A stretch of DNA of 64,000 nucleotides, taken from a virus. The stretch's first letter is position 1, and each line of letters starts with the position of its first letter. The position numbers were made by a program, and so were the translations under genes. The DNA is taken from positions 1-64,000 of the IMG/VR virus record IMGVR_UViG_3300045988_062648, one strand, 5' to 3'. The notes beneath the pieces are model-generated. The model ran no database searches. It saw only the letters and a program-made list of their open reading frames with translations, and was not told where the DNA came from. This document shows positions 6,506-64,000 of the stretch, in pieces.

Positions 6506-8938
6506 ATGGCAGGCTTTTTTCCTACTACTTGGGCACATTTCCCCACACAGCGTGTGAGTGGTGCTGAAAAACGTAAAGCTGAATGGTACGCGAATTGTAT
6601 TGATTACGTTATTGCAATGGGTCTTTCTTGTAATGATAGAACAGAGGATGAACTAGAGTTATCTATACTTCGAGGTAATATTCCTGATAGTTTTTATAAA
6701 AAGACTCTTAACCCTTATAATGCTAGTAAAGAGAAGTATACTAGGTTTCCAGCTACAATGCGTAATTATGATATAATGTCTGATATTATTCGACGTTATG
6801 TTAGTGAATATTTTAAAGGTATTCATCAATTTGTTGTTGGTGCAGAAAATCCAGATATAGTTATTAATAAAGATGCTGCACTTAAACAAACTATTATGCA
6901 AGCAGCTGAACAAGCATTTCAACAAGAGTTTCAAAAACGTTATCAACAAATGCTTAATCAAGCTCAACAACAAGGTCAAAACCCAAATCAAGTTGACCCC
7001 AGTCAAGCAATGCCTGATGTTGAAGAGTTTATGAATAAGTTTAATCAAGATTATATTGATAAAGAAAGTAAACAAGGTCAAGATGTACTTAATTATGTTC
7101 GAGCAATGACAGAAGATAATCTTGTATATCTTACTTGTTATTTTCATTTTGTAGCTCTTGGAGAATGTTTTACATATTGTGATGTTAGGGGTAATAAGAT
7201 AGTTAAAGATTATATTCCTGTAACAGAAGCTTATCCTATTCCTAATTCAAACTTCTTCGTAGAAGACCACGATATGTTTGCAAGAAAGATGATGTTAAGC
7301 TATCAACAGATAATAGACATGTTTGATGATTTTCTTGATGAAAAAGATAGGAAATTTCTTGAAACATATTATGCACATCAAAATGCTAATAGTGGTATAA
7401 CACGTCTTTCTTATAATCAATATTTTGAGAATTATCCTGATGTTTGTTCTAAACTTTCTAATGAAGAACGAGACTTATGGAGAAAACAACCTGTAAGTCT
7501 TTATGAAGTAAATGATAATCTTTATGAAGTATGGCACGTCGTATGGAGAGGAGAAGCTAGACGAGGAATACTTACTTATATAAATGAAGTAGGAATTGAA
7601 GCTACTCGTGTAGTAGATGAAGATTATCAGCTTAATAAAGCTGCTGGAGATATTGATATTGAATGGGCTTATGAGCCACAAGTTTATGAAGGCTATCGTA
7701 TTGGTAATCGTTATACAGCTATTTATCCTATTAAAGCTAGACCTATAGCGTTTAATCGTAATGGTAAACTTCCTTATAATGGTATAATGGAAATTCTACC
7801 TTATATGGGCAAGTTTGACATAATAAAGATAGTAACACCATATCAAGTTATGAGAAATATTATCTCGTATCATAGAGAAATGGTGATAGCAAAGAACAAG
7901 ATGTTAATTCTAATGATGCCACAGTCATTAATACAAGATGATTCAGAAGATAAAGTTTATCGTATGGCAGCTGATGGTATTCTTCTTGTTGATGATAGTG
8001 AAGATACTAATAGTCAGAAGATGGCTCAAGTAAGATTACTTAATGCTAATATGGGTCAGTATATAACTGAACTTACTAATCTTATGGAAAGTATCAAACT
8101 AGAAGCTCGTGAACTTGTTGATATGAATGCTCAACGTTATGGCCAAATAGCTCAATCTGCTGGTGCTACAAATACTCAACAAGCTATCAGTCAATCAGCT
8201 ATTGGTTCAGTTATTATAAATCAAATGTTTGACGAGTTCCGTAAACGTGATTATAATAGAGATATTGATTATGCTAAGTTAGCTTATGTTGATGGTCTTG
8301 ATACAGCTTATTGGGATGAAGTTGGAAAACGTCAATTTATTAGTCTTGATGTTAGTAGCTTTATAAACTCTGATTATTCTGTTACTGTTCGTAATGATGC
8401 AAAAGAAGTTGATAAACTTCAACAGCTTCGTCAATGGGCATTTAGTGCAGCACAAAATGGTGACCTTGAAATGGCTATTGCTGCTATTACAGGAGACAAT
8501 GTTGCTCAAATTAAAAACATAGTTAATCGTTTTGCTGATATTAAACGTAAGCATGAAGAAGATATGCAACATATGGAGCAAATGATTAAACAAGAAGAAG
8601 TTGAAAATAAACTTCGTGAGATTGCAGCTAAAGGTGAGCAAGATCGTCTTACTAAAGAATTGCAATATCAGTATGAGCTTCAACTCAAATATATTGATGT
8701 TGATATGTCAATGATTGCATCTACTCCTGATAACTCTGACGATTTAGCACTTAAAGAGCGTATAGCTAATATGACAGAAGAAAGTAAGCGTAGAATAGAA
8801 GATGCAAAACTTAATATTGAACGTCAAAAACTTGTAGCTGACGCTTATAATGCTGCTGCTGAAAGAGAAGTAAAAAGAGAGCAAATGAAGACTGACTTAC
8901 AAATAGCTAAAACTAATAAGAACAGATACGACAAATAG
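6506..8938 (+). CDS. putative portal protein
   Basis: 810 aa, long highly charged helical C-terminus (EEDMQHMEQMIKQEEVENKLREIAAKGEQDRL...) reminiscent of P22-type portal barrel; position between large ATPase-sized gene and capsid genes. Confidence 0.45.
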   Translation: MAGFFPTTWAHFPTQRVSGAEKRKAEWYANCIDYVIAMGLSCNDRTEDELELSILRGNIPDSFYKKTLNPYNASKEKYTRFPATMRNYDIMSDIIRRYVSEYFKGIHQFVVGAENPDIVINKDAALKQTIMQAAEQAFQQEFQKRYQQMLNQAQQQGQNPNQVDPSQAMPDVEEFMNKFNQDYIDKESKQGQDVLNYVRAMTEDNLVYLTCYFHFVALGECFTYCDVRGNKIVKDYIPVTEAYPIPNSNFFVEDHDMFARKMMLSYQQIIDMFDDFLDEKDRKFLETYYAHQNANSGITRLSYNQYFENYPDVCSKLSNEERDLWRKQPVSLYEVNDNLYEVWHVVWRGEARRGILTYINEVGIEATRVVDEDYQLNKAAGDIDIEWAYEPQVYEGYRIGNRYTAIYPIKARPIAFNRNGKLPYNGIMEILPYMGKFDIIKIVTPYQVMRNIISYHREMVIAKNKMLILMMPQSLIQDDSEDKVYRMAADGILLVDDSEDTNSQKMAQVRLLNANMGQYITELTNLMESIKLEARELVDMNAQRYGQIAQSAGATNTQQAISQSAIGSVIINQMFDEFRKRDYNRDIDYAKLAYVDGLDTAYWDEVGKRQFISLDVSSFINSDYSVTVRNDAKEVDKLQQLRQWAFSAAQNGDLEMAIAAITGDNVAQIKNIVNRFADIKRKHEEDMQHMEQMIKQEEVENKLREIAAKGEQDRLTKELQYQYELQLKYIDVDMSMIASTPDNSDDLALKERIANMTEESKRRIEDAKLNIERQKLVADAYNAAAEREVKREQMKTDLQIAKTNKNRYDK

Positions 8939-9126: not shown

Positions 9127-9151
9127 GGTCTACGGCAACGTTTTGATGAAG
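9127..9151 (-). promoter_or_regulatory. TACGGCAAC iteron-like site (GGTCTACGGCAACGTTTTGATGAAG)
   Basis: near-identical to CCTCTACGGCAACATTTTGTTGAAAAG at 63569-63596 upstream of the wHTH gene. Confidence 0.45.
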
Positions 9152-9355
9152 TCTGATATGCTCTAAATACGGTTTTGAATATATCGTTAAGATGATGCAC
9201 TTAATGAACATAATAATGAAGATTACAGTATAGTATTTAATATTAAAATAAATGTTTCGCGTATTGATAAAAAAGAGTTAAATGGTTTTGTTGCTCGACA
9301 TCAAAAAGCTATATTTGCATCAAATATAGTAATGTATAATTAATCATATAAAACT

Positions 9356-10681
9356 ATGGGAGAAAATGAACTTGATTTAGGTTTCCAGCCAACACTTAAT
9401 ATAGGTGGTGGGAACAAAGGAGAAGACAACACTAAGCCAAATGAAGAAATAACACATCTTAATGGTAAAGGTGACCCTACAAATCCTGAAGATGTAACAG
9501 GTAAAGATGGTACTAAACCTGGAGAACAACCTATAATAGAAGATTCTAATAAAGGAGAAGAAGAGAAGAAAGATGGTGTAGAGCCTGCAAACCCTTCTAC
9601 GGGGGGGCTAGAACCCAATTCTCAAATTGAATATGATGGCCAAGTATATACCGTAGATGAAAATGGTAATATAGTTGATGATAAAGGTCAAATATTTAAA
9701 GAAGCTAAAGATGTTGAAGTTTGGCTTAAAGAAAATGAAATAGTTGATGAAACAAAAGAGACAGATGCAAATAAGATTGATATTAAAGCAATACAAGATG
9801 CATTTGGTATAGAAGTAACAGATGAAGATGGTAAACAAGTTGAATTTACTAATGATGCACAAGGTCTTAAATCTTATGTAGATTCTGTTATTGATATAAA
9901 GTCTAAAGATATACAAGAAGCTACTATTAATAGTTTTCTTGAGAATAATCCTCTTGTTGCTGAATTTATTGATTATGTACAAGTTAATAATGGTAGTCCT
10001 GTAGGATTTGGAACAATTCCTGATAGAAGTAAAATTCAACTTAATAAGGATAATGAACAACAGCAAGAGTATATCATACGAATGGCTGCTAAAGAATTTG
10101 GTAATAATAGTCTTAATGATAATTACATTAAATATCTTAAAGACAGCGGAGGTTTGTATGATGAAGCTAAAGCTCAACTTGAAGCTCTTGTAAATAAAGA
10201 TAAACAAGTACGTGAGAATATAGCTAAACAAGCTGAAGCTCAACGTAAACAAGAAGAAGAAGATTTAGTTAATTATTGGAAAAATGTAAATTCTATTATT
10301 GAGAACAGAAACATTGCTGAATATAAACTTCCTGAGAGTTTTACAAAAGAAGTAGATGGTAAGAAAACAATAGTAACACCAAATGACTTCTTTAATTATC
10401 TGACAAGGCGTACAGTTGTTGATGAACAAGGTAATAGAATAACACCTTATCAAAGAGATTTATATGCAATAACCGAAGAGGAAGAACTTAATAAAGACTT
10501 ACTTGATGCTTGGTTAATGTTCACAGGTGGTACATATAAAGATTTAGTAGATATGGCAATTAAAGAAGATAATGTTCGTAAATTGCGTATTAAGTCTAAA
10601 GAACAACGTACTATTAAACCTATTAAGATTGTTAAGAAAGCAAATGGAGGTAAAGTTGATATTAATGATATTGTGTTATAA
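9356..10681 (+). CDS. acidic coiled-coil protein, putative scaffolding protein
   Basis: 441 aa, very acidic N-terminal half (GEDNTKPNEE..., EEEKKDG), helical KAQLEALVNKDKQVRENIAKQAEAQRKQEEE; located between portal and capsid genes; contains dispersed motif copy (9592-9618). Confidence 0.35.
   Translation: MGENELDLGFQPTLNIGGGNKGEDNTKPNEEITHLNGKGDPTNPEDVTGKDGTKPGEQPIIEDSNKGEEEKKDGVEPANPSTGGLEPNSQIEYDGQVYTVDENGNIVDDKGQIFKEAKDVEVWLKENEIVDETKETDANKIDIKAIQDAFGIEVTDEDGKQVEFTNDAQGLKSYVDSVIDIKSKDIQEATINSFLENNPLVAEFIDYVQVNNGSPVGFGTIPDRSKIQLNKDNEQQQEYIIRMAAKEFGNNSLNDNYIKYLKDSGGLYDEAKAQLEALVNKDKQVRENIAKQAEAQRKQEEEDLVNYWKNVNSIIENRNIAEYKLPESFTKEVDGKKTIVTPNDFFNYLTRRTVVDEQGNRITPYQRDLYAITEEEELNKDLLDAWLMFTGGTYKDLVDMAIKEDNVRKLRIKSKEQRTIKPIKIVKKANGGKVDINDIVL
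9592..9618 (+). repeat. dispersed motif copy (forward, variant): cccttctacgggggggctagaacccaa
   Basis: inside scaffold-like CDS (PSTGGLEPN). Confidence 0.65.
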
Positions 10682-25519: not shown

Positions 25520-25647
25520 GTATGAGCCTCCTGCGAGGTTCTTAGCATTTGGTTTATTCAGTCAAAAACACTATATTTGCAATGTTGGAAACGTGCTGCA
25601 CTTGATATTGTAGTAAGCCGTGGCACTAATATTGAGATAGATAGTGT

Positions 25648-57700: not shown

Positions 57701-60046
57701 GCAACTATTAAAAAGAATCTTAAAGAGATTAGTAAGATAATTGGTTTTAATGTATCTACAAATAATGGTAAGCAAGAATATTATGAGGAACTTAGTTATA
57801 AAACTGATAAAACTCCTCTAATGCCTCTTACTAATACTCTTATGTCTAAAGATAGATTTAAAGCTAAGACTATTGATGAAGCAGAGCAACAACTAGAAGG
57901 AGAACGTTCTATTGATATGCGTGATGTTATAAGACCTCAACGTGACCAATTTGAAACTGTAGAAGAATATAATCAAGCAGTTAATAGATTTGATACTGTA
58001 TCAGACCAAGTTAAAGCTCATAATAGAGAAATTCAAAAAAATCTTATGGATAGAGATTGGTATGATGTTATTGAAAACTTTATAGAACAAGCTGGTCATT
58101 ATAATGCAGTTCAAGATATTAAAGAACAACTTTATTATGGTCTTAGTATGCTTGAAAATCAACAAGCATTTATTAGAAAGTATGGTGCTTTTGGAAATCT
58201 TAAACGAGATGATAGAAGAACTACTGATAATAATCAACCTGTATATGAAACCACAGTTGACAAAGATATAGTATCACAATGGAAAACTTATATGCGTCGT
58301 GTACTATATGACCAGTGGAAAGAGCCTGAAAGTAAACTTACTGCTTTTGCTAATAATCTACAAGGTTTTACATCAGCTAACTATATGATGCTTAACATTC
58401 GTGGTGGTATAGCTAACGTAACACTTGGTGAAACAGGTATTCTTGCAGAAGCTGCTGCACATGAATATTTCCATGCTTCAGAATGGGCTGCTGGTACTGC
58501 TGAATGGTCACTTGGAGTTATGGGTTTTGTTCGTGGTATGTATAGTGAAAAAGCATATAACAAACAAGATGCTATAGCTAAGTTCTTTAAAGCTGTTGAT
58601 TATGATGAACATACTGGTGTTTCAAGACTTGTCGATTTAGCCAAATGGAGTGAGCGTATTCGTAATCTTGGATTTAGTCCTCAAACAATAGGTGAACACT
58701 TCATGCAAAATAGTGTTCTATTTGCTATGATGAAAAGTCATAAAGTAGTTCCTATGCCAAATGACCCAAAAGGTATTGGTTTTACTATTATGAACAAAGA
58801 AGAATACATACGTTATAGACAAGCTGATATACTTAATGAACTTCTTAATGATGAACAACGTGCAGAGTTTGTTCAATTTATGAAAGATATAAGTATGGAT
58901 GCAGACCTTGCAAAAGATTATGCTTGGTTTAGAAAAGAGCCTTTTAGTCAATTCTTAGTTACTCATTGTAGTAATGAACAAAGAAAAGAATTTGGTAAAC
59001 GTATAAAAGAACAACGTAAACGACTCTCAGAAGAGTTTGATAATCATAATTCTTTATATGAACAAGTTGAACTTGGAGAAGATGGTTATATGAAATTTGT
59101 TGAGGGTTCTGACTTAGCACAACTTGATGAAAAACCATATAACGATATTACACAAGCAATAGACCTTATGGGACGTTTTTCAGAACGAGTTAGAAGTGTT
59201 AATAAAAAGATACATGGTGTATATAATAGACTTGGTTCTGCTGATATAGAACGTAAATGGTATGGTAGTCTTATTATGCAATATCATAAACACTTACCTA
59301 TGGGTATTCTTAAACGTTATCGTATAAGAGGTCATTACAATGAAACTCGTGGCAGTGTTGAAAAAGGTATGATAAGTAGTGTTGCAGATTTTCTTTCACT
59401 CAATTTTGATGCAGTTAAACATGATATGGGTCTGAGTGATGATGAAGTATTTACTCTTAAAGGACTTCAAAATCTATTTACTAGTATTGGAGATTTTCTT
59501 ATTAAGATACCTACTACATGGGCTATTGTGCCAGAGTATGATAGAGCTAACATAAGACGTAATCTTGGTGACGCTGTAGGTGTACTTGCTTCTCTTTCTA
59601 CTTCTGTTGCTCTATTTGCTATTGGAGATGATGACGATGATGGTATTCTTTACAATCTCGCAATATATGAAGCTGACCGACTTGGTAGTGAAGCATTTAT
59701 GTATAATCCTATTGGAGCAATTAATGAGGGTAAAAAACTTATGTCTACTCCTATTGCTGCTCAAAGTATTATAAATGATGCTTGGAAAACTATGCAAGAA
59801 ATATGTGGGTTTATACTTGAAGGAGATGAATATGACCCATATTATAAGAATGGTAGATTTGCAGGTGAAAGTAAACTTAGTGTATTTATTCAACGTCGTA
59901 TTCCTATTTGGAATGGTATTAGAAATATAATTGATGTTAGTGAAAATAATAAGTTCTATAAAGTTGGAACTACTGGGTCAATTCTTTTTAATACTCAAGC
60001 AATGGGTAATTGGATAGCTGGAGAGGGCTATCAAGATAACGAATAA
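45797..60046 (+). CDS. giant virion protein containing RNA-polymerase-like DFDID motif (putative virion-packaged RNAP fused to cargo domains)
   Basis: Track start 45704 is TTG overlapping previous ORF; first ATG 45797 gives about 4750 aa. SDFDIDSVYG at nt 51071-51085 resembles the NADFDGD-type metal-binding loop of DPBB RNAPs; size/position typical of crAss-like vRNAP genes. Confidence 0.5.
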   Translation: MSDKSCIIKFNDSSLSKELTKRTGHNSIKFAAYEAAVIENGQFNQAFTDWYKARYKRTPNLEVKDAKTLADRVIEYYNTEVYTTARDITNQSVDAKQVLENGYNSFQDRELGKHFVAVSILRTYRDVHDLGINIRGSKRDYYTNTAKRAWNDYIFESIVARRKKDINQVKEEYDSAEDKYAYINKELGRNKTVSEVNLIAVWNELNGSADKAQRFIDEVFATNEISNIRAEIDDVETDKNINDASDANREENDLDNGEDVAKEEDATDDTISKFDHSGVYSTWLKHLNQRLVVYFNTLEVLNSPTQNDGAWDVNRNNSFGIANTMDAAACSKLIFANNGFANTDEMIYTIRRLSTTIPGFESFAKFADDLEHDADLRTEVFTTFSKAVVPKLETVIENEEVNTRISNLRANPRLATMFLAYDDMRASIGIDNTFMQSRVNAFERSLKKKSGVVENAKERLNKDIDDIIDIVRQYIPSIPANAIKTFIQKNNHADNDINAQYDNLNIIVGNLKNIIKSASATQTRYNSFITRINEAVEHNDAIKHDVSGQPHSHTEYINIADLYKEDYLDASVNGAVAAIVDNVLQYINPDVSFNSRNQDGNQNSDVINNSLVTYMRRLNSRWYMYRDEATGNATWQNDELLDWGRERLLSQQYTYSNILLEHRDEEGNILNKGLFRKGDNGELSLTEYAKDLFDIYYYNGASDLDNGTSAGYSKMNIGVYAPTTYMNYFKANVNGVSDSNFANYFLRIPSDAPKTFILRAPRYSTKNLYSVANRDEIRQAASEIVDNYDRISINDFTRDYFNEETIKVKGNNINSTEDIIANYLTDKGDMYVPTLKAVKQIPDSDEVYVAVETVGTYKNPDGTYSNHLYIIKGTLVKRGKANFLTNREYIASVSDTHDMDEKVKNIMRNYYERRLETHDVTVKGTTYNKARREINRNHTIVKILLNNFKQELLDMATTLNHYFEFNADGSIKFEAKTYRPVFKPGVKDTDGYRFYDLGKNGSVIEASKTGNISHYRLGGNVFKSNKFTVKELGDDNVLRKVNYMEDIFDDSINSTGADGRINLLYGGRESKLNIVRSDTGLVTDVQLTEAQQERAINNIVNFLNSYFTQAQEEVANFNNFVKGVPTTIDAVVDFAANQLITHYAYDDIFEGGVKFYADAQTVLKRAKEVQGSGVSYGIVDFNDSNIADLYDIPNAYLNNGKYSDYTKEQYIGEDGKRHTKEVPRTRTIQEVFAGTELAGITQRNGWRAVTIENSKNTNFAALKELTGVLVKAGMSEENAKNLLYGPVVTDKNGNPIYDKNGLEKHKGGYQDTKVNDAQSYITFKEWVRRIAARGQLKRYMPLIEKLLDPNAVLTDNDLNEFVQVQKNFYYDLHYDSSFNRFVPRQIKNAEFVLVPRFIKGTQLERVAQMMEEANIDQLNTVETSKASNRHVLTLWDNDGEISEERYQNFAKEAKGVAEIYYYKYLYTQQETPQHVNTTNKAGIQIVKKMIDNLAQDDPNKLQFFANYVANIEESWRNLLDKLDVPRDENGNILTNQDGQILGINKKVLYERFKEELYRTGINSNILDFVTLDETTNQPIAPAISNLVLDKIETTHQAIYNSKITRQKLPGFHAAQVTNIGWKRLDNGESKYCLKTNANVIISKEEFNNLDETEKKKYRNTQVQYDGSLRYHPNGEGYIEVKLTYSALGINKNDPHYIGMTNAEIIKELEEQGLDKIIGYRIPTEGKQSVAVMKVVDFIDDGLGSTIVVPNDWVSQTGSDFDIDSVYGITFDTHRGKGGKLIKAKFVDGDNYTISDWINYIKNYADRNAKGYVRPKIKQIIDAINSSEQEEFVSLRAQEDEAFKKFISAIPEQSRGKMVNRFKNEAKRIRTALDGASNKEIWSAQLEKYIQIASDLKAKLKNANTIASIDEFISSCDDILNFLNNQDGRFERKKDAALAEEEQKRIDKYNEIAKEAGLLTFDEYFDALDAAKTPEDFAKLNTRHARNNAIVQSMLNILQDVKNLEENLSRSNSDDIEASIDKCLGDNAKAERENRSQYNVFDEMRYQEEAMSGAVLKGASVFMDSVCSICNVVKPTLRGGVKVSYDTKFYNQEEITKRYGLNKNDISKGRIRVVHNQYGWSSDNRNVIGRLITPYSSETTAYILDAIKKGAMPNVNQFTFPVLKHLVNLGIDYDTAISFMANPAISTIIRNNNRFNSIYSNEFGNAIHESINEIARQLGIKVDEKTPVISVLASVQSKFGDVINKIFKVDKEDVKFSLEEEAAATLALMPDKLIARLKDNGIFGTTTPVEEKLIFDLGNILIFNRLRNQAQEIGGVATALNPDKFGAKMSLFATNQIFDKILGQIYTDSSYVEERTDPILSINGEHILKSIYPGITGDPENSIEPGVPAMLRADISKSTYPSLAAFLKYATATSSVIAKQVLLTQHPAFIRFCNGLATKFSDVVQEMDEKQYNDFQKYAISYFYNNVESIRRPIVPVKNEDGTYSYNIDNSDTPDNATISIEDAERERVFGYNRVPALSIVEKVQVTRNGKTINKTVTRPIEIENLNHPTQEELNDFAQFSPAQKVKFIKTHFDDAGVFDYIDVQLYNPTIRGWRTGMQTLEYLESNVGDNVIFNMFYEAYNNRNPLVAMAARDVIKYAIQVEGYRMRQTAAGKVISNKPLNTGYEEGGMNFFAEVAEMFSTIGTTGSAIFEQTSMDEIYERYFRSHIDNPHIKSFRLTNSSMIKFNIHTRSYDMLVMEKKYDETSDDDKIAKEFNNNCAKAGIKTYHPASNTYTTNNYLRVYRDKKVVLYKIKDLGDKVILYPLNKLQPNETTEWSANDNNNEYPNKITYEGIIHDYQKQLFNDAALQFTSGWIKESNNARKQNGENPVVYYKHRRDYSNQAATVDFNLDKLANEQGGALAQAREQIRSNFERLNAKHLYMRNAALGNYIFVPGFENASKQTITMRNGAKSTFLIAKVDTDRSRTNKRYLGNNKKENAKVIQTIDNPSLRQVYENANNIGLKQVSDLFVVSPYITDSSEDIAMASNIEENFYGMIDNIARVAHTTGEQEAVYVYDKLSKAGVNSTKQAIRNNIELAVRESARYYSHKAQELKNQVNFFIEDPTLPGQYISMNSDEVYNRLVQDQDMTKRYLRVSNEITALRNMLAPFEELNLDSEDAQLQGYIDALKKAYKIVRELPVNEINTNYARKVLAKTSTNPVITANIIDVLDNYHRNYGAMWKFHDIAESGNPFVQLLMRDIASLTEAKRMQTQRFKRNYQARIKEIQDEATRNGYTIDLNKMIDKHGYFVKSYTHQFIEDYDRLRVAKNNAAAEYGIGSIEWLKARNEYEDFKAKYINQEVKQEYYEKRNANEKYMLDNYPEIYEEYMKLHYQRIELMSYSSDHGTTQDIIDKIANVERQMFNLTRPNYYINADGQLVERPVRDPDIQYSPENERVLRLYSRDAQTTLNNYLDAQRKLNEEYYEYDSAFGFEENLEKYLNIIKDFEQRDANGVPTVPITVLENNPKYVEARNWVRENAQFVITPTDEAIKSENSIAYKLTNALNRLLIGRNGKSYAVNDIMNNANDGKGIRDERGIPDGTKLTDKERANIKKNQEDAYQINESTAGSDRILINSISKREGDTYKGEFYRSMTSDKKIDNARYLKLVTELNRKLEKYYSDIDGIIHFEQIPDTEEGIEELSEIAMLYQQIRAVKKQYKSSTSTEATEFIKENVVFVYDKNIYLSQANAVNDRSSEYTEAWMRVNLERNENGDFIQRQDGSVIPNNMIYSYAKPKGKKGETKYDKWVDNQKAEDLAIVNQYYRKVKTRYYYQAMREAMRQEEENHDGSYQKWYQDNHIYNPYTRKYEPLACWLMNEYRDELFKDNEFEGRWMPKRKQRERVVRDGNTSIIVNGVENTIYNEYNDKRNANYNPNLPLSDNYIQGSGYDNNVALNPYEVQMRDYMQSVLQSLAHVDSAKKYFSRGALPRRLKPERATIKKNLKEISKIIGFNVSTNNGKQEYYEELSYKTDKTPLMPLTNTLMSKDRFKAKTIDEAEQQLEGERSIDMRDVIRPQRDQFETVEEYNQAVNRFDTVSDQVKAHNREIQKNLMDRDWYDVIENFIEQAGHYNAVQDIKEQLYYGLSMLENQQAFIRKYGAFGNLKRDDRRTTDNNQPVYETTVDKDIVSQWKTYMRRVLYDQWKEPESKLTAFANNLQGFTSANYMMLNIRGGIANVTLGETGILAEAAAHEYFHASEWAAGTAEWSLGVMGFVRGMYSEKAYNKQDAIAKFFKAVDYDEHTGVSRLVDLAKWSERIRNLGFSPQTIGEHFMQNSVLFAMMKSHKVVPMPNDPKGIGFTIMNKEEYIRYRQADILNELLNDEQRAEFVQFMKDISMDADLAKDYAWFRKEPFSQFLVTHCSNEQRKEFGKRIKEQRKRLSEEFDNHNSLYEQVELGEDGYMKFVEGSDLAQLDEKPYNDITQAIDLMGRFSERVRSVNKKIHGVYNRLGSADIERKWYGSLIMQYHKHLPMGILKRYRIRGHYNETRGSVEKGMISSVADFLSLNFDAVKHDMGLSDDEVFTLKGLQNLFTSIGDFLIKIPTTWAIVPEYDRANIRRNLGDAVGVLASLSTSVALFAIGDDDDDGILYNLAIYEADRLGSEAFMYNPIGAINEGKKLMSTPIAAQSIINDAWKTMQEICGFILEGDEYDPYYKNGRFAGESKLSVFIQRRIPIWNGIRNIIDVSENNKFYKVGTTGSILFNTQAMGNWIAGEGYQDNE
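48981..49010 (+). repeat. dispersed motif copy (forward, subtype B): accttctctacggggggcgagagtccaaac
   Basis: inside giant CDS (LLYGGRES); one substitution in core (ttctctacg). Confidence 0.7.
52642..52670 (-). repeat. dispersed motif copy (reverse): tggcactacaacccccgtagaagagaagt
   Basis: inside giant CDS (GTTTPVEEKL). Confidence 0.75.
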
Positions 60047-60291: not shown

Positions 60292-60362
60292 TGGAGCATG
60301 GTGTAATGGTAGCACCACAGGTTTTGGTTCTGTTAGTAGAGGTTCGAGTCCTCTTGTTCCAA
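60292..60362 (+). tRNA. tRNA-Gln (anticodon TTG)
   Basis: Folded by hand: acceptor TGGAGCA/TGTTCCA (one G-T), D-arm GTGT-aatggta-GCAC with GG, anticodon arm ACAGG-ttTTGgt-TCTGT (U33, anticodon TTG, G37), T-arm AGAGG-TTCGAGT-CCTCT, discriminator A; GC-rich island in AT-rich DNA. Confidence 0.75.
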
Positions 60363-62437: not shown

Positions 62438-62989
62438 TTATTTTTCTGTCGAACCAAAACCGCCTTCTCCACGGTCAGTAGCTCCAAGTGTATCTTGTGT
62501 TTCAACTTCATCCCAAACAATACGTTCACGGCGACGAACAAGTATTTGAGCGACTCTGTCTCCAACACTATATTCAGCACAAGAACTTGTTGGGTCATCT
62601 ATTTGACGATGAACAAGCATAAGTTCTCCACGATAACCTCCATCAAGGGTCCCTGGGGCATTCTGCATAACAGCAAGAGTTTTAGTATTACTACTACGAG
62701 GACGAATTTCCATTTCGTAATCTTTAGGAAGAGCAAAATGAAGTCCAGTATGATAAACTACTCGACCATCATCTTTATACTCTATTGAATGAACATAAAC
62801 ATCCATACAAGCATCACCAGGTTTGGCATAAGTAGGAAGTTTAACTGTTTCATCTTCACGCCAAACTTTAACGTAACAGGTATCAAGTTGACTAAGTACA
62901 TCTTTTACCATGTACTCCAAATCATCTCCACGTCCATTTTGTACAGCTAGTGTTATAGCACTAGTTAAAACATCTACAATTTTACTCAT
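62438..62989 (-). CDS. dut: dUTP diphosphatase (trimeric dUTPase)
   Basis: 183 aa with dUTPase motifs: GDACMDV, RPRSS, GTLDGGYRGEL, GDRVAQ and C-terminal RGEGGFGSTEK (motif V). Confidence 0.6.
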   Translation of the reverse strand: MSKIVDVLTSAITLAVQNGRGDDLEYMVKDVLSQLDTCYVKVWREDETVKLPTYAKPGDACMDVYVHSIEYKDDGRVVYHTGLHFALPKDYEMEIRPRSSNTKTLAVMQNAPGTLDGGYRGELMLVHRQIDDPTSSCAEYSVGDRVAQILVRRRERIVWDEVETQDTLGATDRGEGGFGSTEK

Positions 62990-63488
62990 TTCTTTTAAGT
63001 TTTAATTTACGTAAATTATTTAAATATTCAATACGATTTTTATTTTCTTGTTCTAACTTATATTTACGTTCTTCTTCTTTTCTTTCTTTATCTTTTTTAA
63101 TTATAGTATCTATATTACCTTTAAAAGATTGGTCAACAGGAACTTTATAAGTATCTTTATCTATTATTTGAATAAAGTTTTTTTCAACTAAACTTTTAAT
63201 AGCTTTACTTATAGTTCCTTTATCAAGAGTAAGAACTTCCTCAAAAGTATTACGTTCTATTTTAACAACATTAGTATTTTTCTTTAGACAATCAAGTATG
63301 TAAAAATATACAAGTTGTGTAGATCTATTACAATAAGCAATATCGTAAAGTCTATCTATTTTGACTCGTACACTTTCATTTAAATACTTACAAGGTCTAT
63401 TAATTACTTCACCTTTGTTATTATATTCAGGAACTGTCATTTCATCTATATTAAGAAGTTCTTGTTCATCAATAATAATTTCATTCAT
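62982..63488 (-). CDS. winged-helix DNA-binding regulator-like protein
   Basis: Track start 63602 is TTG; ATG at 63488 (MNEIIIDEQ...). Segment TLDKGTISKAIKSLVEKNFI resembles HTH recognition helix; Lys/Glu-rich helical C-terminus; iteron-like repeats upstream. Confidence 0.35.
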   Translation of the reverse strand: MNEIIIDEQELLNIDEMTVPEYNNKGEVINRPCKYLNESVRVKIDRLYDIAYCNRSTQLVYFYILDCLKKNTNVVKIERNTFEEVLTLDKGTISKAIKSLVEKNFIQIIDKDTYKVPVDQSFKGNIDTIIKKDKERKEEERKYKLEQENKNRIEYLNNLRKLKLKRNE

Positions 63489-63511
63489 AACTAGCTTTAG
63501 ACCGTTGACTA

Positions 63512-63533
63512 TACGGCAAAAATACGGCAAAAA
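63512..63533 (+). promoter_or_regulatory. tandem TACGGCAAAAA direct repeats (iteron/operator-like) upstream of minus-strand regulator gene
   Basis: atacggcaaaaatacggcaaaaag; on the gene strand these read TTTTTGCCGTA twice. Confidence 0.45.
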
Positions 63534-63568
63534 GTTGATAATTAGGCAATATTTATAAGATTTTGTTT

Positions 63569-63596
63569 CCTCTACGGCAACATTTTGTTGAAAAGT
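63569..63596 (+). promoter_or_regulatory. third TACGGCAA site: CCTCTACGGCAACATTTTGTTGAAAAG
   Basis: near-identical to 9127-9151; followed by GTTGAAAAGTTGCCAAAGTGTCAAC partial palindrome. Confidence 0.45.
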
Positions 63597-63615
63597 TGCC
63601 AAAGTGTCAACAAAA

Positions 63616-63648
63616 AAATCTCCTAACTAATTGATAGTCAGGAGATTA
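63616..63648 (+). promoter_or_regulatory. hairpin ATCTCCT-(15 nt)-AGGAGAT
   Basis: 7-bp inverted repeat in the leader region between regulator gene and downstream intergenic region. Confidence 0.3.
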
Positions 63649-63745
63649 CAACGGTCTAAGTAGTTCCTTATATAATATATATAAGTACAATACAAATATA
63701 CTTATCTTTATTTACATCACCATGCGCATTAACTCTTTTAACACT

Positions 63746-63775
63746 CTTGGGATATTAAACCCCCGTAGAAGAGTG
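63746..63775 (-). repeat. dispersed motif copy (reverse): cttgggatattaaacccccgtagaagagtg
   Basis: reverse complement ctcttctacgggggtttaatatcccaag; partner of 63901-63935. Confidence 0.7.
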
Positions 63776-63900
63776 TACATCGTAGCCTTACTTTGGTAAA
63801 AAGTTCAATCATCATTTGTTTCAAAAGCATATTCACTCTATCTAACTCTATTTTGTCTAGTACCAATATCACTACTATCTAGACTAAGACTACAACATCT

Positions 63901-63935
63901 CATTTCTTCTACGGGGGTTGTGTATCCCGACTTAC
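63901..63935 (+). repeat. dispersed motif copy (forward, subtype A): catttcttctacgggggttgtgtatcccgacttac
   Basis: intergenic, 130 nt downstream of its inverted partner. Confidence 0.75.
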
Positions 63936-64000
63936 AGCTTCACCAAGTTACACCGCAACTCCGTAACCTGCTGCACTAATAAGAGCATGGTTCATTACTT

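Follow-up and report, generated by a model that had tools for sequence, protein, structure and literature searches.

Few viruses of the human gut are as abundant as the crAss-like phages, and the closest described counterparts of the crAss-like control region considered here come from other phages and from plasmids. The plasmid antisense RNAs R1 CopA/CopT, pT181 RNAI and ColE2 RNAI are transcribed opposite the leader of their target and are perfectly complementary to it. In work attributed to Citron and Schuster in 1990, the complementary segments of c4 RNA reportedly differ between phages P1 and P7 and set specificity, and c4 is said to be processed. The order of the phage P1 operon, c4-icd-ant, and the action of C4 RNA are described in a published account that cites this 1990 work (PMC8198154). 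In p-crAssphage (Carjivirus communis), repL genes have been described together with a predicted origin upstream (PMC10983915). How crAss-like phages manage to persist without lysogeny is debated, and one proposal is a phage-plasmid lifestyle that relies on RepL genes (PMC10983915).

We analyzed a stretch of viral DNA of 64,000 nucleotides (the window), which is part of the genome of a crAss-like phage. The closest named relative is Bacteroides phage crAss002 (Intestiviridae), with about 72% DNA identity to the window across the dUTPase gene. Late and structural genes occupy the plus strand up to position 60046 and include the portal (6506-8938), a crAss-type capsid and giant proteins of 2353 and 4780 aa. 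A tRNA-Gln lies at 60292, and beyond it replication-side genes are found on the minus strand. Our subject is a 460-nt noncoding gap on this side. It is bounded by the stop of a DUF932 gene, at about 63948, and by the start codon of a 168-aa gene, ATG 63488, after which comes the dUTPase gene. Octamer repeats occur in this gap, and we lean toward the view that they are operator-like sites on a host-type promoter, within a two-level control region that also contains an upstream small RNA. The best-supported part of the region is this predicted small RNA, which would pair with the mRNA leader. The features are as follows.

9129..9150, plus strand: distant 22-mer TCTACGGCAACGTTTTGATGAA, in the portal-scaffold spacer
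62985..63488, minus strand: gene for a predicted winged-helix, RepL-like DNA-binding protein of 168 aa, start ATG 63488
63489..63507, minus strand: 3' arm (anti-seed) CAACGGTCTAAAGCTAGTT, in the mRNA leader and touching the AUG; complementary to 63649-63665
63512..63519, minus strand: octamer S4, TTGCCGTA; its TTG completes the -7 box, and the remainder lies over the predicted transcription start
63517..63524, minus strand: -7 box of predicted promoter P2, TATTTTTG; fits the Bacteroidota consensus TAnnTTTG
63523..63530, minus strand: octamer S3, TTGCCGTA; an extra copy from the duplication of TTTTTGCCGTA, whose TA starts the -7 box
63542..63549, minus strand: octamer S2, TTGCCTAA; its TTG is the predicted P2 -33 element, 22 nt from the -7 box
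63573..63580, minus strand: octamer S1, TTGCCGTA; 31 bp upstream of S2 and inside the 22-mer 63571-63592
63595..63602, minus strand: S0, TTGGCAAC, an inverted copy of the core; with S1 it forms GGCAAC-N13-GTTGCC
63612..63646, minus strand: predicted intrinsic terminator, with stem ATCTCCTGACTA, loop TCAAT, stem TAGTTAGGAGAT and then T7
63649..63665, minus strand: 5' arm (seed) AACTACTTAGACCGTTG, predicted to be single-stranded, between the 5' hairpin and the terminator
63667..63685, minus strand: AT-rich 5' hairpin CTTATATATATTATATAAG; a hairpin is at the same place in all lineages, with differing sequence
63693..63700, minus strand: -7 box of predicted promoter P1, TATATTTG; candidate promoter of a short transcript of about 75 nt (about 63688 to 63612)

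The AlphaFold model of the 168-aa product is confidently folded (pLDDT 96) and comprises an N-terminal beta hairpin, a winged helix-turn-helix (wHTH) domain, in which a beta wing comes after the helices 79-86 and 90-102, and a C-terminal helix of 40 residues. Foldseek matched this model to the DNA-binding domains of CRP and Vfr, and a profile search gave the MarR structure 3nrv at 6.4e-7; the matches in structure and profile searches were solely CRP- and MarR-type DNA-binding domains. The assignment of the adjacent gene to a winged-helix protein in the original prediction is thus upheld by the model. Pfam RepL (PF05732) matches the window protein at 22.9 bits, just above the gathering cut-off of 20.3. 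RepL is also the commonest Pfam match in the protein family (12 of 34 members, best E 5.9e-8), but because only one of the seven closest homologues matches it, membership in the RepL family is distant. A longer reading frame that would start from TTG 63602 (206 aa) is excluded, since relatives differ by an indel of 2 nt ahead of ATG 63488. The family is small, with 45 cluster representatives among 1.84 billion proteins. No homologue was found by tblastn of the window protein and of the homologue from a distant lineage (L017) against 50,697 phage records, nor any relative by a single-protein scan of IMG/VR, and an alignment query was needed to recover relatives. The gene, along with the whole module, is absent from crAss002.

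Twelve orthologous leaders were compared. Seven form the window group (the window, L001, L166, L002, L165, L004 and L005; 56-99% protein identity), one is decayed (L006), and four represent distant lineages (L017, L018, L019 and L194; 32-38% protein identity).

The repeats upstream of the regulator gene proved to be real. Exact copies of TTGCCGTA occur four times in the 64 kb, all on the minus strand (9131-9138, 63512-63519, 63523-63530 and 63573-63580), versus a mean of 0.59 in shuffled sequences, and none of 100 shuffles reaches four. Three of these copies fall within 63512-63580, on the gene strand, and a degenerate local copy, TTGCCTAA, is present at 63542-63549, in a slot that reads TTGCCGTA in the relative L002. 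On the gene strand, the start-to-start distances of successive slots are 31, 19 and 11 bp. S1, S2 and S4 are thus 31 and 30 bp apart, or about three helical turns, which places them on one face of the DNA. S3 and S4 constitute an 11-bp tandem duplication, in which TTTTTGCCGTA occurs twice. When the motif is relaxed to TTGYYRTA, 36 copies are found in the window, which corresponds to about 0.04 expected per 136-nt leader. The window's leader contains three, the leaders of seven related genomes contain two or three each, and no cluster of the motif was found elsewhere in the window. The proposed partial palindrome is likewise present, with TTGGCAAC (63595-63602) as one half and GTTGCC as the other.

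The octamers overlap a predicted promoter. P2 consists of a -33 TTG at 63549-63547, a 22-nt spacer and the -7 box TATTTTTG at 63524-63517, and this TTG-N22-TATTTTTG arrangement fits the pattern of Bacteroidota sigma-A promoters (TAnnTTTG at -7, with TTTG or TTG about 19-21 nt upstream). Both P2 and a predicted late promoter at 9287-9317 match the two-box consensus for the primary sigma factor of Bacteroidota (-33 TTTG, -7 TAnnTTTG). Compared with the classical promoter, the P2 spacer of 22 nt is one above the range of 19-21, and the boxes bear extra C(C/A)GTA tails. A TAnnTTTG box is located 31-57 nt before the ATG in 12 of 12 leaders examined. The TTG lies 19-23 nt upstream of this box in all 11 tabulated leaders, and 22 nt upstream in L194, as read directly from its sequence. 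The -7 region, GTATTTTTGC, is invariant among close relatives. The late promoter reads TTTG-N20-TATATTTG, which is canonical, and relatives retain its boxes while the spacer varies, which shows that host-type promoters are used by the phage. In phage phi14:2, host RNA polymerase reads the middle and late crAss-like genes (bioRxiv 10.1101/2020.03.07.982082).

A second predicted promoter, P1, lies farther upstream. Its box is the sole other gene-strand TAnnTTTG in the leader of about 250-280 nt in 10 of the 11 tabulated leaders, at -195 to -230, and lies about 75-105 nt upstream of the T run of the terminator. L166 and L194 each have one additional TAnnTTTG box. When a -33 TTG was sought at P1 in the tabulated leaders, it was lacking except in L018, which counts against our main reading.

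With respect to P2, S2 covers the -33 element, and S3 and S4 cover the -7 box and the start, so that the repeats lie over the gene's own promoter, as expected for an autoregulatory operator. Because the octamers coincide with the -33 and -7/+1 elements, an operator is favored over an origin, and these positions argue for repression. Counting against our main reading, the promoter alone explains the TTG of S2 and of S4.

This overlap bears on a simpler account, in which there would be promoter sequence only: a -33 TTG, a -7 TTTG, an 11-bp duplication produced by slippage and an upstream promoter-like remnant, with no dedicated reader protein. We consider this account unlikely, although it carries appreciable weight. 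It fits the fact that S2, S3 and S4 each overlap a promoter box, the drift of the CCGTA tails at CpG (to CCATA or TTGTA) in close relatives, and the retention of just TTTGC/TTTGA repeats in distant lineages. Against it stand the absence of any C(C/A)GTA tail behind the TTG boxes of the late promoter at 9287-9317 and of P1, and the presence of at least two good sites in every genome of the window group though the slots differ. The arrangement in L194, described below, is also difficult to reconcile with it.

Within the window group, the slots keep their positions while the octamer takes the forms TTGCCGTA, TTGCCATA, TTGCTATA, TTGTCATA and TTGTTGTA. Each genome has two or three good sites in differing slots: S1, S3 and S4 are used in the window group, and S1, S2 and S4 in the L002 group. 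S1 is the most variable slot among relatives, S3 is degenerate in L002 and L004 (TATTGTA and TGTTGTA), and the S0/S1 palindrome is partly kept (GACAAC/GTTGCT and GGCAAC/GTTGTC). Across the proteins of the window, L002 and L004, the predicted recognition helix (residues 90-102) varies at its last residue only. That the octamer is loosely conserved despite this near-identity is an observation against our main reading.

The distant lineages differ from one another in this respect. In L194, whose protein is 38% identical to that of the window, TTGCAGTA occurs exactly three times, at 1108, 1138 and 1168, where 0.15 copies are expected. The copies are 30 bp apart, and all of them carry an A in place of the C found in the window. 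Copy 2 lies over the -33 element and copy 3 over the -7 box and the start site, the third copy overlapping TATCTTTG; a palindrome, TTGCACAATTTGCAA, is found at the position equivalent to S0. The L194 recognition helix is SDATVSRSIQS, versus DKGTISKAIKS. That one base has changed in concert in all three copies, with the geometry unaltered, speaks for a shared reader, and most simply this putative reader would be the adjacent wHTH protein. Binding sites that co-evolve with a neighboring protein would look like the L194 array. The octamer was sought in L017, L018 and L019 and is absent; they have just TTTGC/TTTGA-type repeats, which could be plain promoter boxes, and the operator reading is therefore likely but not secure.

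The original prediction also allowed that the repeats are iterons. An operator-type layout on the gene's own promoter is seen, but we found no origin signal. Iterons are typically three or more direct repeats of about 17-22 bp in helical phase; the repeats here are phased, but the unit is 8-11 bp and there are four copies. No DnaA box (TTATCCACA, within one mismatch) is present in 63400-64000, and GC skew shows no inflection at 63.5 kb, its only sign change being at about 60.4 kb. If the octamers were nevertheless replication-origin iterons, the RepL-like protein would melt the AT-rich stretch 63662-63715 for replication of the phage/plasmid type, with autoregulation as a by-product. In many plasmids the initiator binds iterons that lie over its own promoter, which we count in favor of this possibility, as we do the facts that RepL is the best Pfam match for the family and that the repeats are direct, phased and adjacent to the AT-rich stretch. 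For p-crAssphage, moreover, which has two repL genes, an origin has been predicted immediately ahead of one of them (PMC10983915). The terms iterons, direct repeats and DnaA boxes have zero occurrences each in that paper. Counting against the origin, iterons are not known as a defined feature of RepL replicons, and phage P1 has its origin inside repL (PMC10983915). The short unit, the lack of a DnaA box and the distant skew change count against iterons, P1 and a conserved RNA hairpin explain the AT-rich stretch, and the RepL match of the window protein is marginal. Since the related phage crAss002 is without the whole module, the locus is not an essential origin of the phage group. We regard origin iterons as very unlikely.

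The strongest signal in the region is one that the original prediction missed: covarying long-range RNA pairing, accompanied by a second promoter and a terminator that also covaries. Two mutually complementary arms, 63649-63665 and 63489-63507, flank the octamers. The arm duplex of the window has a predicted free energy of -20.2 kcal/mol, which 1 of 500 shuffles equals. Within-genome duplexes are -20.2, -19.4, -12.9, -20.4, -23.7, -17.9 and -17.0 kcal/mol, matched by 0-3 of 500 shuffles, whereas duplexes formed across sequence classes are weaker, at -4 to -12.7 kcal/mol. In L006, whose gene is truncated to 103 aa, the pairing is weak (-10.0 kcal/mol, with 86 of 500 shuffles as good). Arm sequences are unrelated among five lineages, yet complementarity to the leader is kept in each, at -17 to -24 kcal/mol, as follows.

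Window: 5' arm TTAGACCGTTG, 3' arm CAACGGTCTAA
L019: 5' arm ACACTGGAT, 3' arm ATCCAGTGT
L017: 5' arm ATTTTCATCCG, 3' arm CGGATGAAAAT
L018: 5' arm ATTTTTGTTATA, 3' arm TATAACAAAAAT
L194: 5' arm AATTGTTGCT, 3' arm AGCAACAATT

Like the weak pairing in L006, the position of the 3' arm in L019, about 26-34 nt before the AUG and not on it, counts against our main reading. Single compensatory changes are seen within the window group, as in L002 (ATAGACC/GGTCTAT) and L005 (AACC/GGTT), and in L166 a position with G in the 5' arm and T in the 3' arm pairs, as G-U, only in gene-strand RNA. A transposon-like inverted repeat was considered as a source of the arms and rejected, because the arms change completely around an intervening sequence (terminator top and promoter boxes) that is itself conserved, and because the L166 position pairs in gene-strand RNA alone.

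The terminator is supported in a similar manner. RNAalifold applied to 10 leaders gave 13 pairs, 6 of them with compensatory changes and none broken, followed by a run of T5-T8. Pairs that are G-U in RNA are kept in this stem, which points to gene-strand RNA. In minimum-energy folds of the short transcript from four lineages, a 5' hairpin is followed by an open linker of 15-19 nt, which is the 5' arm, and by the terminator; the leader of the P2 mRNA is predicted to be unstructured. The two ends of the putative transcript, the -7 box and the terminator, are conserved, with the seed predicted to be open between them. Comparison of leaders thus reveals the two predicted promoter boxes, the terminator and the pairing of the arms; that the short RNA is transcribed and acts in trans, and that protein binds the octamers, is what we infer. 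The upstream unit looks like a putative small RNA of the c4 type known from phage P1, which would control the RepL-like gene.

Database searches gave no known counterpart. At gathering scores, a tRNA-Gln is the sole Rfam match in the whole window, and in 63400-64000, searched up to E 10, the best match has E 0.44 and all matches are far below gathering scores. A literature search with the sequences of the terminator loop and dispersed motif returned nothing relevant, and no description of such an element was found in the literature searched or among Rfam families. To look for a second target, we searched the window for complements of the seed with up to three mismatches, and the seed locus alone was returned; the real 3' arm pairs in a bulged register and so falls outside this threshold.

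The arms could instead act in cis, as parts of one 5' UTR. Transcripts that begin at P1 or in an upstream operon would read through the terminator, the arms would close a domain of 150 nt that hides the start region, and only transcripts from P2 would be translated. The fold of 63480-63700 (221 nt) has a free energy of -61.5 kcal/mol (z = -6.45), with a long-range arm helix that closes the domain, and covariation proves pairing while being silent on whether one molecule or two are involved. Against action in cis, compensatory changes have preserved a strong terminator (12-13 bp plus T7), the stretch between the arms has kept a complete promoter, and the 5' arm is open in the fold of the short transcript. 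We consider the cis arrangement rather unlikely.

The control region that we favor would operate at two levels. At the DNA level, the gene would be read from the host-type Bacteroidota promoter P2, with S2 over the -33 element, S4 running from the end of the -7 box over the start site, and S3 as an extra copy from the duplication; the gene's own product would bind the octamers and shut off P2, a form of autorepression. At the RNA level, P1 (63700-63693), about 175 nt upstream, would start a transcript of about 75 nt that ends near 63612 and contains the AT-rich 5' hairpin, the open linker of 15-19 nt and the strong terminator. The linker is complementary to the leader of the P2 mRNA directly 5' of the AUG. 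Bacteroidota mRNAs require an unstructured leader, and the small RNA, by pairing with this leader, may block the initiation of translation.

An almost identical 25-mer had also been reported in the spacer between the portal and scaffold genes. The match exists, but it spans 22 nt rather than 25: TCTACGGCAACGTTTTGATGAA and TCTACGGCAACATTTTGTTGAA (63571-63592) are identical at 20 of 22 positions on the same DNA strand. In a BLAST comparison of the 512-nt leader region with the rest of the window, its E-value is 0.018, so that in a scan of the whole genome the match exceeds chance by a small margin only. The portal-spacer 22-mer is unchanged in relatives at 97% identity, and reads GTCTACGGGCTTAATTTCGGTC at 87% (L010) and GCGACAGGGCACGAATTTCAAAC at 76% (L020), while the flanking blocks and the late promoter at 9287-9317 are kept where it diverges. 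RNA structure in the spacer is weak (-5.9 kcal/mol) and uninformative. When a leader/spacer pair was sought in three IMG/VR genomes with distant proteins, none was convincing: 073497 and 117192 had none, and 074430 had a weak, AT-rich match of 19/22.

The suggestion that a satellite site couples the regulator to the late region is not supported by these comparisons, as the portal-spacer copy is not conserved at 87% and 76% identity. As a functional pair, 9129-9150 and S1 would couple the winged-helix gene to the late operon, either as sites for the same protein or as complementary RNAs, the latter being conceivable because the two loci are transcribed in opposite directions. In support, a 20/22 identity is not expected at all in shuffled sequences, and S1 of the window resembles the portal site more than it does the orthologous S1 of relatives with about 87% protein identity. 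The genome-wide E-value, the location of the portal site in the least conserved part of the spacer, its loss in L010 and L020, and the results for 073497, 117192 and 074430 count on the other side and make such a pair most unlikely. From these alignments, 9129..9150 is probably not a conserved functional site, and a conserved coupling of leader and portal spacer seems unlikely.

A dispersed motif, TCTTCTACGGGGG, had been proposed to share its core with the octamers. The motif itself is real, with 20 copies at up to two mismatches where 0.12 are expected. Its link to the octamers amounts to an overlap of 7 nt, TCTACGG, in S1 and the portal site only, and is lost in the S1 of relatives.

By themselves, the octamers amount to a promoter-operator feature of an ordinary kind. 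The locus as a whole represents a concrete, testable control circuit for a RepL-like gene, in which a host-type promoter with phased octamers would be combined with an upstream small RNA. Should this RNA prove real, the lineage-specific seed provides a simple test of copy-number control or of exclusion between related phages. More speculatively, and in our view doubtful, a dedicated small RNA with a lineage-specific seed would control a RepL-like initiator, the seed being a determinant of immunity or incompatibility and the octamers serving as both the operator and the origin sites of the initiator. In that case, the seed would set copy number in plasmid-like carriage and exclude superinfecting relatives that share it.

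Of the systems introduced at the outset, c4 of phages P1 and P7 offers the closest parallel: it is a small RNA located upstream of its target on the same strand and complementary to the region of the target's translation start, and its segments differ between phages much as the seed and anti-seed here covary between lineages. It differs in that c4 is cut from the transcript of its own target and controls an antirepressor in a temperate phage. The RNA proposed here has an apparent -7 box of its own, a strong terminator and a separate promoter between itself and its target, which is a RepL-like winged-helix gene of a crAss-like phage, and there is no sequence similarity to c4. In R1 CopA/CopT, pT181 RNAI and ColE2 RNAI, as would be the case here, a short, structured RNA that ends in a terminator limits synthesis of the initiator by pairing with the rep mRNA leader, as is generally known; unlike those antisense RNAs, the RNA here is encoded in tandem with its target and shares just a seed of 9-17 nt with it. 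With P1 RepA, pPS10 RepA and lambda O, the locus shares a winged-helix gene that follows phased direct repeats and an inverted copy over its promoter, but its repeat unit is 8-11 bp, it has no DnaA box and its product has a single wHTH in 168 aa. Finally, as for repL of p-crAssphage, a RepL-annotated gene in a replication-side module is preceded by a noncoding stretch that has been proposed to be regulatory or origin DNA.

The sequence TCTTCTACGGGGG is dispersed throughout the window, in which 20 copies are found when up to two mismatches are allowed, versus 0.12 expected. These copies are divided evenly between the strands (ten on each), and extended forms of the motif read TTGTAG..CCCAAC or GCGAGAG.CCAA. 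The positions of the copies are as follows.

567, 3917, 9593, 15149, 21427, 21577, 25658, 25784, 32818: copies of TCTTCTACGGGGG, first part of the window
34416, 42080, 42193, 44495, 48984, 52653, 60061, 63760, 63905, and others: copies of TCTTCTACGGGGG, rest of the window

Copies that lie within genes use every one of the three sense frames (reading SLLRGA, SSTGG and LLYGG), and antisense copies (TTPVEE) occur as well. Because the coding copies thus occupy all sense frames and the opposite strand, selection on the motif acts on nucleotides and not on protein. Conservation was assessed in a gene for a 441-amino-acid protein by comparing 80 divergent crAss-like loci from IMG/VR, whose proteins are 43-76% identical. 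A copy with at most two mismatches is present at the homologous place in 72 of the 80, where it is retained despite AT-rich codon usage, and in most of the 40 loci listed it continues as TCTTCTACGGGGGAGCT. A literature search did not find the sequence of the motif in a relevant context.

Some copies are arranged as inverted pairs, which could form long RNA hairpins.

63760-63772 (- strand) and 63905-63917 (+ strand): inverted pair, about 130 nucleotides apart, in the interval from the DUF932 stop codon to P1, the -7 box of the candidate small RNA in the leader of the winged-helix gene; kept in relatives
567/593: similar inverted pair
21427/21577: similar inverted pair
25658/25784: similar inverted pair
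42080/42193/42230: similar inverted pairing

A canonical Bacteroidota promoter, TTTG-N20-TATATTTG, located at 9287-9328, precedes the gene at 9356. One half of the perfect palindrome TATATTTGCATCAAATATA serves as its -7 box, so that a -7 box is present on each strand. In four relatives compared at the portal-scaffold spacer (L008-L010 and L020), the promoter boxes and the 5' leader are kept, and the spacer is variable. A second canonical promoter was observed at 25548-25579.

The invariant top of the terminator predicted for the small RNA, CTGACTATCAATTAGTTAG (63622-63640, - strand), is not confined to the phage. The exact 19-mer is present in the genomes of 27 GTDB species, which belong almost entirely to the Bacteroidota and span several orders (Bacteroidales, Flavobacteriales, Cytophagales, Saprospiraceae), and in approximately 20 of the 27 it lies directly 3' of a tRNA gene. 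In these tRNA-adjoining copies the sequence caps a hairpin whose outer stem is different, and a T run comes next. Without its leading C, the sequence (then an 18-mer) is present in 65 metagenome contigs. The terminator top includes a perfect IHF consensus, WATCAANNNNTTR, and matched no family in Rfam. It may represent a terminator-loop motif shared across the phylum, of which the phage has made a copy.

L101, L123, L126, L128, L135, L161, L164, L167-L193: loci carrying the terminator top

Palindromes of the form ACTTATACTTTTGT.ATAAGTATAAGTT flank the terminator top in three very AT-rich metagenome contigs (L106, L144 and L158; GC 0.23-0.27 for these three) and in L183, a contig of a Flavobacterium MAG. 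In the three metagenome contigs, an ORF that begins MSKKGQITTTSFIEWNDF or MSRLGQNTTTSFIEWNDF lies downstream of the terminator top. The arrangement in all four may point to a further context, mobile or phage, in which this element occurs.

In one relative (L006, 2420-3312), the winged-helix gene is shortened to 103 amino acids and followed by three extra small ORFs, and pairing between the seed and anti-seed, the complementary arms of the leader, is weak (-10.0 kcal/mol). These features are consistent with decay of the module after damage to the winged-helix gene. In crAss002 (63136-69681), the neighborhood from DUF932 to dUTPase is the same as in the window, with three small ORFs replacing the winged-helix gene and its 460-nucleotide leader. 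Given this replacement in crAss002, the gene and leader form a cassette that is accessory within this group of phages.
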